This document shows, one piece after another, positions 9,248-53,580 of a DNA stretch of 64,000 nucleotides. Each line of letters begins with the position of its first letter. Position 1 is the first letter of the stretch. The stretch lies in the NCBI GenBank assembly GCA_963707955.1, contig OY970176.1:64001-128000 (forward strand), written 5' to 3'. Both the position numbers and the translations under genes were made by a program. The stretch comes from Candidatus Bathyarchaeota archaeon. Its GTDB lineage: Archaea > Thermoproteota > Bathyarchaeia > Bathyarchaeales > Bathycorpusculaceae. The notes beneath the pieces were generated by a model that was given only the letters and a program-made list of their open reading frames with translations, did no database searches and had not been told where the DNA came from.

Positions 9248-9778
9248 TTAGAGGTAAATGTTGATGGCCTTGCTTTTCTGTAAGATGCCGATTATTATGG
9301 CGCATATTATCAAGCTTGGTATCATGTAGCTTCCGTTGTAAATTGCTGAGTAGACTAAGGGGTTCTCTCCGTTCGCGTAGTTGGACCAGTAGAGTACGCC
9401 TGAGACGAAGTGGCTTATGAATCGGCCTGTAGCGCCTACGACGACGCCTGCAACTGGGGTTTTCTGGAAAAACCCGGCGACGCCAAGCAGACCGAAGGGC
9501 AACGGGTAATCCAGGATGAATTGGGCGGGGTTGACGACGAAAGGTTCGATTGCAAGATCAACGACGCCGAACACGGCGCCTGCGAAAATCCCTATTTTTG
9601 GGCCTCTTCTGTAGGCCAGCCAGAAGATGGGTACCATTCCAATGTTGATGCTTCCGCCTTGTGGCAGGCTGAAGAAAGAATGGCTTATGAGGCTTAAGGC
9701 TCCGGCCAAGGCGACGAGCACTATTACTTCTGAGAGTATCTTGGTGCTAAAATGCCGATTTGCGGGTTTTTGATCTAT
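9248..9778 (-). CDS. thiT: Energy-coupled thiamine transporter S component; probable ATA start at 9778 (first GTG at 9721)
   Basis: LPQGGSI, QFILDYPLPF, RFISHFVSGV, YSAIYNGSY motifs; directly downstream of a TPP riboswitch. Confidence 0.88.
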   Translation of the reverse strand: MDQKPANRHFSTKILSEVIVLVALAGALSLISHSFFSLPQGGSINIGMVPIFWLAYRRGPKIGIFAGAVFGVVDLAIEPFVVNPAQFILDYPLPFGLLGVAGFFQKTPVAGVVVGATGRFISHFVSGVLYWSNYANGENPLVYSAIYNGSYMIPSLIICAIIIGILQKSKAINIYL

Positions 9779-9782
9779 TGTT

Positions 9783-9877
9783 TTTTCCCTCCGCCAGTAT
9801 TACCTGGGTCAGGTTCTAAGGGTCGACGGTGTTCAACCGTCCTCTCAGCCGGGTCACAATCCCAGCTCCCCGAAACC
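9783..9877 (-). ncRNA. TPP (THI-box) riboswitch
   Basis: Minus strand GGGGAGCT...GCTGAGAG...GACCCTTAGAACCTGACCCAGGTAATACTGGCGGAGGGAA matches the TPP aptamer consensus; upstream of thiT; TATA-like TTTTATA near 9905-9912. Confidence 0.93.
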
Positions 9878-10038
9878 TATGAAGGGTAATTGTTATCTAT
9901 GCGTATAAAAGCGTTCTGGATGACACTTTAGATTACGCAACAACGAAAATGCGTTGCTTGGGAGATCGTGATCTGTCGCTGCTTCTTGCCAGTCAGACAT
10001 GCTTAAGAACTTCGTTGATCAATTAGTCTTGATGTTTC

Positions 10039-30133: not shown

Positions 30134-30232
30134 GGGCCCGTAGCTCAGTAAGGACAGAGCACCGGGCTTTTAAGCAAAAAGCTTTGCGTGGAAACCCGGG
30201 GGTCCCGGGTTCAATTCCCGGCGGGCCCGCCA
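30134..30232 (+). tRNA. tRNA-Lys(TTT) with a 21-nt intron at 37/38 (30173-30193), encoded CCA
   Basis: Cloverleaf: GGGCCCG/CGGGCCC acceptor, CCGGG-CT-TTT-A|intron|A-CCCGG, GGTTCAATTCC. Confidence 0.93.
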
Positions 30233-46836: not shown

Positions 46837-47883
46837 ATGCCACAGTTTTACGAATACGAGTTGACAAGAGCAGCGCACAAGCTGGTCGCTGAAATGTTCA
46901 AGTTGAAGAAGGACGAAACCTTTGTGATAACTGCGGACACCGAATCAGACCCTCGGGTGGTTGAGGCAACCGCTGGGGCAGCATTCGCTGTCGGAGCCAA
47001 ACCCATGGTCATTTGGACGGCGTCACCCTTGGGCGTAGGCAAAGCGGCAGACCCGATGCTCCCAGTAGAAGCGTTGACGGTTGCGTTGAACAAGGCTGAC
47101 GCGTGGGTTGAATACAACAACGAGTGGCTCCTGTACTCAACGCCGTACGAAAGGGCAATGAAGGAAAACAAGAAGCTCAGGCATATGTGCTTGGTCGGCA
47201 TGAACGTTGACATGATGGTCAGAGTCATTGCGAGAGTCGACCTGCCCACGTTAGGCAAGTTCCAAGACAAGCTGATCGCTCTGACAAAGGCTGCCAAACA
47301 CGTCAAAATGACGACACCTGCAGGAGAAAACATTGAATTTAGCAATGACCCCAAGAGACCGATGATATGCGAAGTCGGATACGCTGACACGCCAGGATCC
47401 CACATGCTCGGTGGCCAAATAGGCTGGTCGCCGATCTTCAAATCTATCAACGGGGTCATAGCCTTCGACGGCTCAGTCGTGCCCCCAATCGGCCTAACAA
47501 AGGCTCCCATAAAACTTCACGTCAAAGAAGGAAACATTGTCAAAATAGAAGGCGGAAAAGACGCACAGACCTTCGAAGCTTGGCTAAAGAGCTTCAAGAG
47601 TCCACTAATGCTACGAATAGCTCACGTCTGCTACGGGGTCAACCCAGGTGCCAAGCTGACTGGAAACATAGTTGAAGACGAGAGAGTCTGGGGAGGCACC
47701 GAATGGGGAATAGGCTACGTTGGTCAAATGCTGACGGGCGGCGAACCGATTCAGGCGCCCTCTCACACGGACGGCATATGCTTGAACACCTCAGTTTGGC
47801 TCGACGGTAAACAGATCTTTGACAAGGGCATGGTAGTTCACCCAGAGCTCGCCAAACTTGCAAAGAAACTCGGGAAATCCTAG
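46837..47883 (+). CDS. M29/leucyl aminopeptidase-like (NicX-like) metalloprotein
   Basis: IAHVCYGVNP, VEDERVWG, SHTDG. Confidence 0.8.
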   Translation: MPQFYEYELTRAAHKLVAEMFKLKKDETFVITADTESDPRVVEATAGAAFAVGAKPMVIWTASPLGVGKAADPMLPVEALTVALNKADAWVEYNNEWLLYSTPYERAMKENKKLRHMCLVGMNVDMMVRVIARVDLPTLGKFQDKLIALTKAAKHVKMTTPAGENIEFSNDPKRPMICEVGYADTPGSHMLGGQIGWSPIFKSINGVIAFDGSVVPPIGLTKAPIKLHVKEGNIVKIEGGKDAQTFEAWLKSFKSPLMLRIAHVCYGVNPGAKLTGNIVEDERVWGGTEWGIGYVGQMLTGGEPIQAPSHTDGICLNTSVWLDGKQIFDKGMVVHPELAKLAKKLGKS

Positions 47884-47912
47884 TTCCTTTCCGTTTTCAT
47901 GGTCTGCAAACG

Positions 47913-48962
47913 GTGAGATGTATGATTGACAAGAAGAAATTGGCTGATGGCGCTGTGAACATGCTCAAAGTGAACATGGGACTCAAGAGAGGCGAAAAAC
48001 TCCTGGTCGTCACAGACATCCCGACAGTTGCGGAGTGGGAATCAAAAGACAGCGCCAAGTTGACAGAGGCATTGGAAAGATCGCTTCTAGCCAAAACAGT
48101 GAGCGAAATCGCTGGTGAAAAGTTTCCAGACTGCAAAGTTGAGTTCTACGTTTATCCGTCCATAGGTAAACACGGCACGTACCCGGGAAAAGAAGTTGAA
48201 GAAAAAATGAAAGCCGCTGATGTGGACATTGCAATAACCACTTACTCGCTGACACACACCGACGCTCGGGTAAACTCCTGCAAAGCAGGCGCTCGAGTTG
48301 CAAGCATGCCCATGTTTGTTGCAGAAATGTTCTATACCGGCGGACCGATGGCATCCGATTATCGTGAAATAGACAAAGAAACGAAGAAAATCGCGAACCT
48401 AATCACAGGAACTAACGAAGCGAAAGTAACGTCTCCAGGAGGGACAGACATCACTTTCAGTTTGAAAGGCAGAAAAGGAATGGTTGACGCTGGAATCTTC
48501 ACTGAGAAAGGCTCTTGGGGCAACCTTCCGTCAGGAGAAGCCTACTGCGCGCCCGTCGAAGGATCCGCCAACGGTAGGCTCGTCGTAGAAGCCAACTGGT
48601 ACCCAGACCTCAAGGAAAAGATGACGCTGAAATTCCAGAACGGTTACGTCACCGAGATAATTGGCGGGGGAAAAATCGGCGACGAATACAGAGGCCTACT
48701 CGACTTTAGCAAAAAAGCAGAACCCTACACTTCCAGAAGGAACCTCGCAGAGCTTGGGATAGGAACAAACCCAAATGCGAAACGGCCTGACAACATTTTA
48801 GAATCCGAAAAGATCAAGGGAACCGTTCACTTAGCCATCGGCGATAACTCTCACATGGGAGGCAAAGTGTCCGCAGACCTGCATCAGGACTTCATTATTC
48901 CAAAGCCCACATGGATGCTCGACGGAAAAGCCATGATGAAAGATGGGAAACTCGTAATATAA
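47913..48962 (+). CDS. M29 aminopeptidase-like protein
   Basis: NLPSGEAY, LAELGIGTNP, LESEKIKGTVHLAIG, LHQD. Confidence 0.85.
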   Translation: MRCMIDKKKLADGAVNMLKVNMGLKRGEKLLVVTDIPTVAEWESKDSAKLTEALERSLLAKTVSEIAGEKFPDCKVEFYVYPSIGKHGTYPGKEVEEKMKAADVDIAITTYSLTHTDARVNSCKAGARVASMPMFVAEMFYTGGPMASDYREIDKETKKIANLITGTNEAKVTSPGGTDITFSLKGRKGMVDAGIFTEKGSWGNLPSGEAYCAPVEGSANGRLVVEANWYPDLKEKMTLKFQNGYVTEIIGGGKIGDEYRGLLDFSKKAEPYTSRRNLAELGIGTNPNAKRPDNILESEKIKGTVHLAIGDNSHMGGKVSADLHQDFIIPKPTWMLDGKAMMKDGKLVI

Positions 48963-49377
48963 AGCGAACTTCATTCTCCATTTCTTTTTCAATTCTGAAT
49001 TCTGTTCCTCATCAGCTTTTTCCAAGTTCTTATGAAAAAATGTCGCCATATCCCAACTGGAAATCATTTTTCATCTCACCCTCTATGATTCTCTGTAACG
49101 AGAAATCATCCGAATCCGTTCGCGCGCACGTGAAACTGGCTTCGTTGAGAATGAGGGGTTTGACATTGCGGAAGTTTGAGAGGATTTATCGTAAGCTTCT
49201 CCTGCTTAGCCTACGTGGAGTTTCGTTGGCGCGTCAGAAAGGCGTTGCCTCAGAGTGCGCGGTTTCGTTTGGTTTGGTTGATAAGACCTTGCGAAAGCTT
49301 AAGCTCCCTCGGCACTCGCTTTGCCAACGAATTAAGGTTATATACTATTTCGTTTTTTGTTATTCTCGGTCGGGCAC

Positions 49378-49593
49378 CGGGCGGTAGCTCAGCCTGGCAG
49401 AGCTTCCGAGTCAGCATAGCGCCAAACACTGGCTGACGGAGACGCTGTAGAAGCCTACCAAAGGTGGGCATCACCCAGCCTACCAGGCTAACAGGCAGAA
49501 ACCGGATCGCCGCAGGAGAGTTGGAGTATTACCTTCAGCTCGGCGATTTCAAAATGAGGGTTTAGCTTCATGAAAGTCCTGCCCGCCCGACCA
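49378..49593 (+). tRNA. tRNA-Tyr(GTA) with four introns (30/31, 37/38, 53/54, 59/60), encoded CCA
   Basis: Exons 49378-49408, 49444-49450, 49501-49516, 49548-49553 and 49577-49593 join into a complete 77-nt cloverleaf with C1-G72, A73 and BHB-type junctions; TATA-like TTATATA near 49338. Confidence 0.88.
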
Positions 49594-49594
49594 A

Positions 49595-49925
49595 CACAAT
49601 CCATTAGACGTAGTAGGCGACGCAGACGCGGAACGTTATCGACTTGCATTAAACGCTGTTTCCTCGGATCCAAACGTTGGAATAATTCTGGTGATCGTAC
49701 TTCTTCAAACATCCTACATTGAGTCGGATGTGGTTGACGCAATAACTGAATCGCAAGTAACCTACGGCAAAGCCGTGATCGTATGCACTATAGGAGGAGA
49801 CTTCGCACAAACATTGGTCAAAATGTCAGAGGAAGACCGCATACCATCATACAAAAACCCCGGAGAGGGCAGTCAACGCGTTAAACGCGCTTATCAAATA
49901 CGGCAAAGCGCTGGAAGACAAATAA
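49595..49925 (+). pseudogene. C-terminal remnant of acetate/acyl-CoA ligase (ADP-forming) alpha subunit
   Basis: HNPLDVVGDADAERY...IPSYK/PERAVNAL; lacks the N-terminus; frameshift near 49852-49861. Confidence 0.75.
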
Positions 49926-49964
49926 AAGAGAAAGATCGGGGCACACTGAAATTAACCCCACAAC

Positions 49965-51218
49965 TCATGTTATTTGCCTGTAATCGAAGTCGTCTTCCAG
50001 AAGATGATTCTTGTACTTTGTGACGTCGGTCTCTTGTTGCATTAATCTAGTCAAGGTCGACGTGCCTTTTCTGTCTCCTAGAAGGATTGCTCCTACGATT
50101 TTGCCTTGGTCCAGAACGATCTTCTTGTAGACGCCTCTTTGCTTGTCGATTCTTTTGATCTCCTCGTATTGGGGTCCTTCGGGGCTCACCAGTCCCATTG
50201 AAGTTAGACTTATTCCCGCGATTTTTAACGTCGTGGACTGTATTGTGCCGTTGTAAACATGTTTTTCGCCTTCAAGCATGTTTGCAGCTGCTACTCTTGC
50301 TTGCTCAATAGCCGGAGGGATTATGCCGTAAACCTTTCTATGAAACTCCAGTACGTCTCTAGCAGCATAGACTTCATCAGCGCTGGTTCGCAGGTAATCA
50401 TCGACGACTACTCCCTTGTTTACTTTGATCCCCGCGTCTGCAGCGAGTCGGATGTCAGATCTCACGCCTGCTGATATCAAAATGAGCTCGCCTGAAACTT
50501 CCTTTTCATTATCAAGTGCTACTCCAGCAACTGCCTCTTTGCCAAGGATTTCGGTTGTTTTTACGCCAAGCTGCATGCCTATACCAAGTTTTCTAAGGTC
50601 ATTCTCCAGAATCGATGAGCCGTCTTGATCTAACTGCCTCGGTAGCAACATGGGGAAAATTTCTACAACTTCGACTTTTTGGCCCAGCTTCATTAAGCAA
50701 TCGGCAAATTCTATGCCTAGAAGTCCACCTCCGATGACTATTGCTTCCCTTGTCTTCGTTGCATATTGCTTTATAGCGATGGCATCTTCAACGGTGCGAA
50801 GAGTAAAAATTCCCTTCTTCTCTATGCCCGCTATAGGTGGAACGAATGCGTGGGCTCCGTTTGCCAAGAGAAGTCTGTCGTAGTTTGCTTTTAGGCCACC
50901 TTCAAGCGTGATTTCTTTATTCGCTGGGTCTATCCGCATGATTTTCTTGCCTAGTTGAACCTTAATGCCGAGCTTCTCATACCACTTCGGCGCATAGGAG
51001 TAGATCTCTTGCGGTTCTTTTTCTCCCGAAAGAACCTCGTATAGTCTCGGTCGAGGATAGTACAGATGATTTTCATCTGTGTAGACTGTAACTTCGTGTT
51101 CAGGAGCAGCATTTTGCCTTATGGCCCTTGCTGCTGTGACGCCTGCCACTCCGCAACCGATGATCGCGATACGCATAGGAATGCTCACCGAATCCTTGAT
51201 TGAGATTCCGTTAAGCAA
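49965..51218 (-). CDS. NAD(P)/FAD-dependent oxidoreductase (rubredoxin reductase/NirB-N-like); likely start 51176
   Basis: GCGVAG, GGGLLG; second FAD motif reads YAARD instead of YAAGD. Confidence 0.88.
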   Translation of the reverse strand: MLNGISIKDSVSIPMRIAIIGCGVAGVTAARAIRQNAAPEHEVTVYTDENHLYYPRPRLYEVLSGEKEPQEIYSYAPKWYEKLGIKVQLGKKIMRIDPANKEITLEGGLKANYDRLLLANGAHAFVPPIAGIEKKGIFTLRTVEDAIAIKQYATKTREAIVIGGGLLGIEFADCLMKLGQKVEVVEIFPMLLPRQLDQDGSSILENDLRKLGIGMQLGVKTTEILGKEAVAGVALDNEKEVSGELILISAGVRSDIRLAADAGIKVNKGVVVDDYLRTSADEVYAARDVLEFHRKVYGIIPPAIEQARVAAANMLEGEKHVYNGTIQSTTLKIAGISLTSMGLVSPEGPQYEEIKRIDKQRGVYKKIVLDQGKIVGAILLGDRKGTSTLTRLMQQETDVTKYKNHLLEDDFDYRQIT

Positions 51219-51239
51219 CCTCTTCTTAAATGTGGTTCG

Positions 51240-52649
51240 TCATTTTTTGGTGAGCTCTGAAAGCTCTCTGATGTCATGTATCTCGATCAGGTTGCTAGAA
51301 TGCTGTTTGGACGTTCTGAAGGCTGCGGTGAAAAGAATTGTGTCTCGGTCGCGGATGATGCCCATTGAATGAAGCTTGTTTGCGGTCGCAAGAATGTGGT
51401 CTTTCTCTTTAACGTAGTTGATGTGCACAGGATAGACGCCGAAAGACAGTTCAAGTTGTCTCTTCACGCGGTTATCAGGTGTAACGGCGATTATTGGTTG
51501 TATGAGCTTGAATCTTGAGATCATTCGAGCTGTGTAGCCTGATCGGGTTAGTGTGACAACTTTGTCTATGGGCATTTCTTGGCATATCCTTTGAACGGCT
51601 TTGCTTATCGTGTCTGAGGTGTTGATGAACCCTTCGTCTTCGACGTGGCTTTCGATTGCCTTTTCAGTTTCGTTCGCAATTCTTGACATCATAGAGACAG
51701 ATTCTACAGGGTACTGCCCTACTGCTGTCTCTCCTGAAAGCATGGTTACTTCTGTTCCATCCAATATTGCGTTTGCGACGTCGCTGACTTCGGCTCTTGT
51801 TGGACTCGGCTGGTGTGTCATCGATTCAAGCATTTCTGTTGCAGTCACAACGGTCTTTCCTCTCTGATTGCATTTTCTTATTATTGATTTCTGGAGCTGC
51901 GGGACTTTTTCTGGTTCTATTTCAACGCCCAGGTCGCCTCTTGCCACCATGATTCCGTCTGCAGCGTCGAGGATCTGATTGAAGTTTTCGACACCTTCCG
52001 AATTTTCTATCTTGGCGATGACTGCGCCTTTGAACCCGTCGGCCTCTTTCTTCAGGGTGTTCACGTCCTGAGCATTTCTTGTGAATGAAAGGGCTATAAA
52101 CTCAACATCACTCTCCTTTGCGAGATCTATTATTTTCAGGTCTTTGCTGGAGAGGGTTGGAACTGTCAGTTTCTTGTTCGGGATGTTGACTCCTTTTCCG
52201 TCGTCTATTTCACCGCTCGTTGTCGCAAGCAGTTTCAGGGTATCTTTCCGTTTTTCTTTGACTGTGGTTCTCAGCCTGCCGTTGTCGATAAGAACAGTGT
52301 CTCCGACATGCATTTCTTCATAGATGTTGTTATTGAAGCCTATTTTTTCGTTTCTGCCTACGTCAAGAGTGTCGCCTTTGTTGACAGTTTTTCTGCCCAT
52401 TGCTTTGAGCCTTATTTCAGGGCCCTTCACGTCGATGATTATTGGAATGTCTGCTACTTCTCGAAGACTGCTAATCATGATCCTGTACTGATCAAGCGTC
52501 CCATAAGCAGTGTTTATTCTGGCACCGTTCATACCTGAACGGTACATTTTTCTAAGCGTGTTTCTGGAAATGCTAGCTGGACCGATCGTGCAGATGATCT
52601 TGGTTTTCTTCACCCACTCATACTCCAATGCCATTTCAAAAGGCGCCAC
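51240..52649 (-). CDS. pyk: Pyruvate kinase
   Basis: TKIICTIGPAS, AKIEN, MVARGDLGVE, PTRAEVSDVANA, MLSGETA. Confidence 0.96.
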   Translation of the reverse strand: MAPFEMALEYEWVKKTKIICTIGPASISRNTLRKMYRSGMNGARINTAYGTLDQYRIMISSLREVADIPIIIDVKGPEIRLKAMGRKTVNKGDTLDVGRNEKIGFNNNIYEEMHVGDTVLIDNGRLRTTVKEKRKDTLKLLATTSGEIDDGKGVNIPNKKLTVPTLSSKDLKIIDLAKESDVEFIALSFTRNAQDVNTLKKEADGFKGAVIAKIENSEGVENFNQILDAADGIMVARGDLGVEIEPEKVPQLQKSIIRKCNQRGKTVVTATEMLESMTHQPSPTRAEVSDVANAILDGTEVTMLSGETAVGQYPVESVSMMSRIANETEKAIESHVEDEGFINTSDTISKAVQRICQEMPIDKVVTLTRSGYTARMISRFKLIQPIIAVTPDNRVKRQLELSFGVYPVHINYVKEKDHILATANKLHSMGIIRDRDTILFTAAFRTSKQHSSNLIEIHDIRELSELTKK

Positions 52650-52719
52650 TTGGAGTTCACAGTGAAGAAAAGTGATAAGTCCTATTAGAAGATTACACTA
52701 GTGTATATGGAGGATTTTC

Positions 52720-53409
52720 ATGATCTGCAATCTGTTTGTCTTTAGGCATGCTGAAACAACTGATAACAGCCGTGGAATATTCTCAGGTTGGCGAGACTCA
52801 GAACTTACCTTGAAAGGACTCTCGCAAGCACAGGAGATTGCAGAGCAACTAAGGCGAGAGAAAATTGACTATGCGTTCACCTCACATCTTAAGAGAGCTC
52901 GAAAAACTCTTGAAATAGTCCTTGAAAAGCATCCTGCTATCCCTGTTTTTACGGATGACGGGCTCATCGAACGTTGCTACGGCTTGCTTCAGGGCAAAAG
53001 CAAGAGAAGGGTTGCTGAGGAAAGGCCTGAATGGTTCGCTCAAATTCACAGGGGCTATGATTTTCCGCCGCCAGAGGGAGAAAGTTTAAAGATGGTTGAA
53101 AATCGAACGTTGCCCTTCTTGTTGCAGCTTCAAGAATGGCTCCGACAGAACCCGGCTAACGTGGCAATCTCGTGCCATGGTAACTCTCTGCGCCCAATTC
53201 GTCGAGTCTTCGAGCATCTGAGCTTAAAACAGATGCTTCAGATTGAGAATCCCCAAGATCGTGCAATGTCTTATGCCCTTCATGTTCACAGTGTTAATAT
53301 TGGAGGCCCTAGAAGAAACACCGTTAAAGCGGACTGGCAAGGCATACTGGTTCCTCAGCAAGTAAGATTGGCAACAGATCAGCGAAACCCATTGAAGAGA
53401 TATTACTAG
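52720..53409 (+). CDS. Histidine phosphatase, dPGM-like phosphoglycerate mutase
   Basis: FRHAET, FSGWRD, ERCYGLLQG, PPPEGESL, HGNSLR. Confidence 0.85.
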   Translation: MICNLFVFRHAETTDNSRGIFSGWRDSELTLKGLSQAQEIAEQLRREKIDYAFTSHLKRARKTLEIVLEKHPAIPVFTDDGLIERCYGLLQGKSKRRVAEERPEWFAQIHRGYDFPPPEGESLKMVENRTLPFLLQLQEWLRQNPANVAISCHGNSLRPIRRVFEHLSLKQMLQIENPQDRAMSYALHVHSVNIGGPRRNTVKADWQGILVPQQVRLATDQRNPLKRYY

Positions 53410-53580
53410 TTCCCAATAATGCTGCGCCGGAAGATCACTAGTGCACCTTGGCGCTTGCAATACAAAATTAGCGCGCTATCTTGTCTCTTCATTATGAAGA
53501 ATGTTGGTGAGATGGTTTGTCGGATAACTTCGGAAAGTTTAATTTGCTTGAGAAGATTAACAAGTTTAACGTGTTGAGAA

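Follow-up and report, generated by a model that had tools for sequence, protein, structure and literature searches.

A tRNA-Tyr(GUA) gene with four introns, recurrent among Bathyarchaeia, and a covarying helix between its second intron and the D-arm

The interruption of archaeal tRNA genes by several introns has been described in different lineages, and a 'maximum of three introns' per gene is given in the excerpted text of a 2014 review (PMC4033280), as is 'up to three' in that of the paper on tRNAscan-SE 2.0 (PMC8450103). The multi-intron tRNA genes of the Thermoproteales (Sugahara et al., 2008, cited in PMC4033280) resemble the gene described here in several aspects, as far as the excerpts of these sources extend: the introns are short, of the bulge-helix-bulge (BHB) type and located at canonical and non-canonical positions including 59/60-like sites in the T-loop, the host splicing endonuclease EndA consists of two paralogues, the genes are missed by tRNA scanners and neighbouring introns need stepwise removal (PMC8450103). 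On the other hand, the maximum for the Thermoproteales in these excerpts is three introns, whereas the present gene possesses four, belongs to the Bathyarchaeia, includes exons of only 6 and 7 nt, has its introns organised as two pairs and shows covariation of intron 2 with the D-arm. Equally, heavily interrupted tRNA genes with more than three intervening sequences per gene, many of them missed by annotation, have been found in Asgard archaea; the majority of the tRNA genes in three Asgard genomes are multi-intron according to the excerpt of a 2024 report (Nat Commun, PMC11291895), and as many as five intervening sequences within a single tRNA gene are reported for this group in the accessible part of an October 2026 preprint (bioRxiv 10.64898/2026.10.13.758758), a part in which neither Bathyarchaeia nor tRNA-Tyr is mentioned. 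Asgard archaea constitute a different phylum, however, and the interruption in the genome analysed here is gene-specific. A eukaryotic three-intron tRNA, in the portion of its description at hand, equally carries introns in several arms, the T-loop included, and RT-PCR intermediates show an order of removal with the intron at 37/38 leaving last, which matches the order proposed below for introns 1 and 2; unlike in the present gene, a helix between intron and D-arm is not described in that portion.

The gene reported here is a multi-intron archaeal tRNA gene with one intron above the reviewed maximum and is recurrent in its class. Our literature search retrieved no paper on four-intron tRNA genes in Bathyarchaeia. 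An earlier note on this DNA had suggested that a four-intron gene may be at or beyond the known range; set against the excerpted statements of the review and the tRNAscan-SE paper, with three introns each (PMC4033280, PMC8450103), the assessment stands, but it is qualified by the five intervening sequences reported for Asgard archaea in the accessible part of the preprint. Four introns move the archaeal per-gene limit of three as stated in reviews and in the paper of the standard tRNA finder.

The window, a stretch of 64,000 nucleotides from the genome of a Candidatus Bathyarchaeota archaeon (G000; a single 2.35-Mb contig with a marker-based completeness of 97%), harbours the tRNA-Tyr(GUA) gene at 49378-49593 on the forward strand (Table 1). 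Cut by coordinates, the gene falls into five exons of 31, 7, 16, 6 and 17 nt separated by four introns of 35, 50, 31 and 23 nt at positions 30/31, 37/38, 53/54 and 59/60. The reading of a tRNA-Tyr(GUA) with four BHB-type introns at these positions, put forward in the earlier note, holds, and its exon and intron coordinates and lengths were exactly reproduced by reading and coordinate cutting. Upon joining of the exons in silico and submission to a tRNA finder, as had been proposed, ARAGORN calls a perfect 77-nt tRNA-Tyr(gta) without a defect in any of its four stems (acceptor, D, anticodon, T), in the cloverleaf of which the anticodon GUA, C1-G72, A73 and an encoded CCA are present. Anticodon GUA, the C1-G72 pair and discriminator base A73 define the archaeal/eukaryotic identity type of tRNA-Tyr.

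Table 1. Features of the tRNA-Tyr(GUA) locus and of the adjoining 3.9-kb block in window coordinates.
Feature	Position	Strand	Size and site	Description
TATA-box-like element TTATATA	49338..49344	+	~35 nt 5' of mature end	read from the sequence
Exon 1	49378..49408	+		acceptor 5' strand, D-arm, anticodon-stem positions 27-30
Long-range helix, 5' strand	49392..49400	+		D-loop and D-stem 3' strand; partner is the intron 2 tail
Intron 1	49409..49443	+	35 nt, 30/31	central CTTC/GGAG, inner 6 bp, outer 2 bp
Exon 2	49444..49450	+	7 nt	position 31 and anticodon-loop 32-37, anticodon GTA
Intron 2	49451..49500	+	50 nt, canonical 37/38	5' hairpin, conserved 3' tail, central CTGT/GCAG
Long-range helix, 3' strand	49480..49488	+		intron 2 tail; partner is the D-arm
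Exon 3	49501..49516	+		positions 38-53: anticodon-stem 3' strand, variable loop, T-stem 5' strand
Intron 3	49517..49547	+	31 nt, 53/54	central CGCA/GGCG, inner 9 bp, outer none
Exon 4	49548..49553	+	6 nt	T-loop positions 54-59
Intron 4	49554..49576	+	23 nt, 59/60	central TTCA/TGAA, inner 5 bp
Exon 5	49577..49593	+		position 60, T-stem 3' strand, acceptor 3' strand, A73, encoded CCA
Oxidoreductase	49965-51218	-		3.9-kb block
Pyruvate kinase	51240-52649	-		3.9-kb block
Histidine phosphatase	52720-53409	+		3.9-kb block

The TTATATA element upstream of exon 1 is the probable archaeal promoter of the tRNA-Tyr gene. Inspection by eye located an A/T-rich ATAAAT- or TATATA-like element at a similar upstream distance in 20/20 loci, and CCA is encoded in 20/20 tRNA-Tyr loci inspected. 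A scan of the locus for promoters and terminators of the bacterial type was uninformative, the model being bacterial and the host archaeal.

That standard tRNA scanners would likely miss such a gene had been anticipated and holds for ARAGORN and the Rfam tRNA model: in the window as well as in the genome, the unspliced gene is detected neither by ARAGORN with and without intron search nor by the Rfam tRNA model at the gathering threshold, and a permissive Rfam scan of 49300-49700 gave only a chance Y-RNA-like match (E 9.7). A tRNA-Tyr is absent among the 40 ARAGORN calls and the 36 Rfam matches across the G000 genome. Similarity search with the locus identifies a single matching place in G000, and the exact words of its exons occur once; the check for another tRNA-Tyr in the genome, recommended in the earlier note, thus found none by ARAGORN, Rfam, similarity or exact exon words. 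As 26/40 ARAGORN tRNA genes in G000 are also recovered by the intron-free search of the program, the interruption is gene-specific and not genome-wide in G000. On the level of expression, one metatranscriptome run contained 5% of the sampled words of 47000-52000, with contigs 85-95% alike that represent neighbouring genes only and leave 49004-50339 with zero cover in this run. In Bathyarchaeia, an essential tRNA can seem to be missing from a genome, which affects annotation and completeness estimates of a very abundant uncultured group.

Additional RNA genes were observed alongside. The window contains a tRNA-Lys(UUU) gene at 30134-30229 (+), scored with 59.4 bits by the Rfam tRNA model and interrupted by one intron that ARAGORN reports as 21 nt long, at position 40 in its own numbering, and, in this archaeal genome, a TPP riboswitch at 9768-9882 (-) (RF00059, 68.3 bits, above the gathering score). 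Four further tRNA-like loci of 97-121 nt with paired acceptor, U8, intact T-arm and CCA reside outside the window in G000 (C1:595141-595249 (+), 1526864-1526977 (-), 550538-550661 (-) and 524173-524272 (-)). All four are missed by ARAGORN; the last one is partly matched by Rfam (32.2 bits) and reads by eye as tRNA-Gln(UUG). More hidden tRNA genes are likely in this genome, given that Phe, Met, Glu(CUC) and further tRNAs are absent from the ARAGORN list of G000.

The distribution of introns among relatives was assessed in an unselected sample of G000 and 40 relatives, in which tRNA-Tyr was located by spliced alignment in 31/41 genomes; among the ten other genomes, eight were without a match and in two (G014, G023) the match is another tRNA. 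One intron, at 37/38 only, is present in 4/31 genomes (G022, G026, G036, G037), two introns, at 30/31 and 37/38, in 21/31, three introns in 3/31 (G028, G033 and G038, the latter without intron 1) and four introns in another 3/31 (G000, G034, G035), which represent three families. In the genus of the window, the gene was located in 7/10 relatives and is of the two-intron type in all seven. The 3' part of the gene is one uninterrupted 36-nt stretch in 7/7 congeners, with 32-36/36 positions the same as in the joined exons 3-5 (identical in L002 and L003, and with 2-4 differences in the variable loop in L004-L008). Given this contiguous 3' part, introns 3 and 4 are true insertions, the gene being unchanged apart from them, and, as the nearest relatives are without them, they are dispensable for the gene. 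Spliced alignment recovered the same exons in all 19 relatives' loci compared; orthologues with the same exons exclude chance for the five-exon gene.

A class-wide pattern scan, together with the first 20 loci, yielded at least 140 loci, 132 of them cleanly aligned. The scan required introns 1 and 2 and is uninformative on the frequency of these two introns; the loci stem from metagenome-assembled genomes of Candidatus Bathyarchaeia/Bathyarchaeota, with a few labelled Nitrososphaeria or Thaumarchaeota. Among the matches listed, the 132 cleanly aligned loci comprise 89 with two, 13 with three and 30 with four introns. Viewed by eye, L097 more likely has three introns, which sets the four-intron count at 29-30/132 among the matches listed, a figure in which the locus of the window and the duplicates L012 and L075 are counted. 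Of the two T-arm introns, 12 loci contain intron 4 without intron 3 and a single locus (L043) contains intron 3 without intron 4, again among the matches listed. Eight loci were set aside, two cut by contig ends (L062, L132), three with gaps of 202-248 nt (L066, L119, L131) and three (L085, L093, L126) that are three-intron genes by eye, while L057 and L059 are by eye ordinary four-intron genes wrongly cut by the aligner. With 3/31 sample genomes and 29-30/132 of the listed class-wide loci, the four-intron tRNA-Tyr is recurrent and not a singularity. The one- to four-intron alleles among close relatives provide a natural series for the study of intron gain, loss and retention.

Two peculiarities were noticed among these loci. 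In L126 and L097, a variant third intron is situated in the variable loop (at about 45/46 or 46/47); these tRNA-Tyr genes belong to a sub-lineage with an acceptor stem that begins with CCCGCGG. Locus L164 (G020:C3:66589-67517) is a second, degenerate two-intron tRNA-Tyr with mismatches in the acceptor, D- and T-arm, which looks like a pseudogene; the intact copy of the same genome is L010.

In a BHB motif, a central helix of 4 bp is flanked by a 3-nt bulge on either strand, and each of the two cuts falls behind the second base of its bulge. The register of the motifs was set by the exon ends, with four central pairs followed by a 5' bulge of two exon bases and one intron base, mirrored on the 3' side. 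The central helix of intron 1 is formed by 4/4 pairs in G000 and in 123/124 distinct sequences among the matches listed. Equally, that of intron 2 has 4/4 pairs in G000, one of them G-U, and 4/4 in 121/124, and an inner helix adjacent to it is missing in G000 as well as in 99/124 sequences among the matches listed. The central helix of intron 3 has 3/4 pairs in G000 and thus represents, with its A.G mismatch, a relaxed BHB form; relatives among the matches listed show 4/4 pairs in 9/27 and 3/4 in 18/27 sequences, the position of the mismatch is A-U in five relatives, and the inner helix extends over at least 5 bp in 25/27 of the matches listed. For intron 4, 4/4 central pairs in G000 are accompanied by 4/4 in 30/39 and 3/4 in 9/39 relatives, and by an inner helix of at least 4 bp in 38/39, among the matches listed. 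In G000, the inner helices of introns 1-4 measure 6, 0, 9 and 5 bp and the outer helices in the unspliced RNA 2, 1, 0 and 0 bp; 5-bp outer helices become available to intron 2 (anticodon stem) and intron 4 (T-stem) only upon removal of, or by pairing across, the respective upstream intron. With flanking helices that are missing or conditional in comparison with the strict hBHBh' form, all four introns constitute relaxed or conditional motifs. The BHB details of the earlier note are in agreement with this analysis for all four introns, including the mismatch in intron 3 and the relaxed intron 2. Removal of the four introns restores the canonical cloverleaf, as judged by ARAGORN and by the contiguous 3' part in the seven congeners.

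Conservation extends over the central as well as the inner helices of the splicing motifs, and the latter covary. Inner-helix pairs changed on both sides amount to 6/6 for intron 1, 5/6 for intron 3 and 4/5 for intron 4. A structure with intron 1 and the long-range helix described below has 95.5% of cells paired in the 124 listed sequences versus 32-46% in slid controls, in which partners were moved by one to three columns, and a structure with introns 3 and 4 has 93.3% versus 30-42%. The observed covariation score was reached by 0/500 shuffles in both alignments. Further pair types in the alignment of introns 3 and 4 were not above the shuffles, 466/500 of which reached the observed value.

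The introns are arranged as two pairs, one per arm. In each pair, one member interrupts loop position 6/7 (37/38, 59/60) and the other lies at the 5' junction of stem and loop (30/31, 53/54), a layout that leaves the first six or seven loop bases as a micro-exon. The upstream intron of either pair forms its central helix with positions (25-28 / 48-51) that overlap the stem (27-31 / 49-53) needed by the downstream intron as outer helix; furthermore, positions 32-33 take part in the outer helix of intron 1 as well as in the central helix of intron 2. Because of the bases shared within each pair, the two full motifs are mutually exclusive and removal would have to proceed via alternative folds. 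The use of exon 2 by the motifs of both intron 1 and intron 2, already pointed out in the earlier note, is confirmed by the sequence, and the full motifs cannot coexist. The cost of forcing each splicing motif was estimated with a folding model (ViennaRNA, 37 C). In the model, the motif of intron 2 costs 5.1 kcal/mol in the full precursor and 1.9 after removal of intron 1, and the motif of intron 1 costs 4.1 kcal/mol in the full precursor and 4.9-5.9 after removal of intron 2. These modelled differences are small and let us lean towards removal of intron 1 before intron 2. In any state, the modelled cost is 1.8-2.6 kcal/mol for the motif of intron 4 and 5.5-7.0 kcal/mol for that of intron 3; the latter value counts against the explanation preferred below, and the folding figures say nothing firm on the order in which introns 3 and 4 might be removed. 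The T-stem would become the outer helix of intron 4 upon removal or looping away of intron 3.

Conservation is far higher in the 3' part of intron 2 than in the other introns, and this part is complementary to the D-loop and the 3' strand of the D-stem. In the 124 distinct sequences among the matches listed, 98.5% of the cells of this nine-pair D-arm/intron 2 helix are paired. The helix column pair 17/141 is U-A in 69, C-G in 53 and other in 2 of the matches listed, and a second helix pair is U-A in 82, C-G in 26, U-G in 8 and unpaired in 8 of them. The helix is predicted unprompted by RNAalifold, in the structure of which it continues unbroken into the outer helix of intron 1 (pairs 24-77 and 25-76). 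In G000, 8/9 pairs are formed between 49392-49400 and 49480-49488, with C.A at 49398/49482. As intron 2 tail and helix are retained in four relatives without intron 1, the helix does not solely act on intron 1, and its first role is to be sought with intron 2 or with the D-arm itself. Upon formation, the helix would fold away 25-30 nt that are otherwise located between the hairpin of intron 2 and its central helix, and would block formation of the D-stem in the precursor. Where intron 1 is present, the helix would in addition lengthen the outer helix of this intron, and with its outer helix extended in this way intron 1 might tend to leave before intron 2. The class-wide covarying helix is probably a scaffold on which introns 1 and 2 are spliced. 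The covarying helix between D-arm and intron 2 tail across the class is new here; a limited literature search found no description of a helix between intron and D-arm. We consider this helix the part most worth following up, as it may show an intron that shapes the folding and the processing order of its own precursor.

The inventory for splicing is encoded in G000. Two EndA paralogues possess both Pfam domains each; in the paralogue of 185 aa (best matches 2cv8_A, 3p1z_B and 3ajv_B), Tyr, His and Lys are by eye in the expected places, and the paralogue of 189 aa is without the corresponding His. RtcB is equally encoded. The two paralogues would fit an EndA of the heterotetrameric type, an assembly state suggested by the presence of the paralogue pair. 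Heterotetrameric and epsilon2 EndA are the only types that cut non-canonical introns according to the excerpted text of PMC5829648. We consider it highly probable that the locus is a functional single-copy Bathyarchaeia tRNA-Tyr(GUA) gene, the four BHB introns of which are cut by EndA and the exons of which are joined by RtcB, with two intron pairs that need alternative folds and a D-arm/intron 2 helix that aids the order of events; the gene itself is real and almost certainly functional. Against this explanation speak the A.G mismatch and the missing outer helix of intron 3, the missing inner helix of intron 2, the C.A mismatch in the long-range helix of G000, the retention of this helix in relatives that have no intron 1 and the lack of introns 3 and 4 in the nearest relatives. 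Transcription from its own promoter would give rise to a precursor of ~216 nt plus leader, in which the archaeal splicing endonuclease would cut out the four introns at their BHB motifs before RtcB would join the five exons. Gene anatomy, conservation, covariation and the genes for the enzymes are shown by these data; that the gene is transcribed and cleaved at the predicted sites, in which order the introns leave and what the long-range helix does are what we infer.

A decaying relic, with the tyrosine codons read by another, hidden tRNA-Tyr gene, is a very remote alternative to a functional gene. The locus has no cover in the one metatranscriptome run found, G020 exemplifies a genome with a second, degenerate copy (L164), and a hidden copy is conceivable in so far as scanners miss other tRNA genes in G000, with four more candidates unseen by ARAGORN. 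However, the four stems are preserved, as are the identity elements, CCA and each of the four splicing motifs, the exons are near-invariant across the class and a second match to the gene is absent in G000; the covariation of the intron helices requires selection for splicing, which argues against decay. Archaeal tRNA introns are often circularised after excision, and the tRNA-Trp intron of Haloferax reportedly guides 2'-O-methylation. The D-arm/intron 2 pairing might not be for splicing at all, and the excised, circularised intron 2 might act in trans on D-arms as a guide or decoy. The retention of the helix where intron 1 is absent and its length of 9-10 bp, similar to a guide duplex, would be compatible with such an activity, but neither a C box nor a D box is visible by eye in intron 2, upon which a reading as box C/D guide was rejected, RNAalifold stacks the helix continuously with the outer helix of intron 1 and the folding model couples the helix with the splicing motifs, so that we regard action in trans as unlikely. 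Staying with a role in splicing, we tentatively suggest, as one possibility and with more doubt than conviction, that the intron 2 tail is a built-in folding device: pairing with the D-arm might hold a non-cloverleaf fold that presents the sites of introns 1 and 2 in turn, the D-arm might form only after splicing, tRNA-Tyr might depend class-wide on an intron for its ordered maturation, and introns 3 and 4 might be a later mobile copy of the paired arrangement, spreading or lost between lineages. If true, intron-dependent ordered maturation would explain why the canonical intron is never lost.

With respect to the origin of introns 3 and 4 in this particular gene, non-vertical acquisition is conceivable, though we would hesitate to favour it, namely recombination with DNA of a four-intron Bathyarchaeia lineage that brought in both introns together with a 3.9-kb block 3' of CCA. 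All seven located congeners are two-intron, including G007 with flanking genes 96% identical in protein, and synteny with G007 breaks directly after CCA, where G000 has 3,878 nt (49594-53471) and G007 141 nt. Identity to the counterparts in G007, G001 and G008 alike is 79-82% for the pyruvate kinase of the block and 87-89% for its histidine phosphatase; kinase and phosphatase of G007, with 79% and 88% protein identity, are situated elsewhere, with flanks that map to 1.562-1.569 Mb of G000. Moreover, introns 3 and 4 share ~83% identity with a subfamily that is present in both intron-2 lineage types. These block and synteny data are consistent with a replacement of the 3' part of the gene or of the whole gene, in either case along with the block, by DNA of a more distant relative. 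Yet an integrase, a LAGLIDADG gene and a left-behind back half of the tRNA were all not found in G000, the block consists of ordinary metabolic genes, block genes are located beside tRNA-Tyr in 0/139 other listed loci and a repeated precise loss in the congeners is possible. Unconstrained sequence has diverged everywhere between G000 and G007, so that a lower identity of the introns proves little.

Mobile elements were considered at the locus as well and rejected. For an integrated element at the 3' end of the tRNA, the block at 49594-53471 is without an integrase, and a second copy of the last 12-14 nt of the tRNA or of the 3' 100 nt is not found in the genome. A homing-endonuclease cassette with a spare back half was not seen at the G000 locus, and LAGLIDADG_3 has no match in the G000 genome. 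A second pyruvate kinase, 66% identical, is encoded elsewhere in G000. Among the intron-bearing loci checked, a second copy of the last 14 nt of tRNA-Tyr is present only in L080, a three-intron tRNA-Tyr locus, 1073 nt downstream. An identical 23-nt intron 4 is shared by eight loci (L021, L022, L029, L039, L060, L063, L103 and L135), the introns 1-3 of which differ, which reflects either an unusually strong constraint or a recent spread between lineages; the intron 4 of the window differs from this shared copy at 3 bases.
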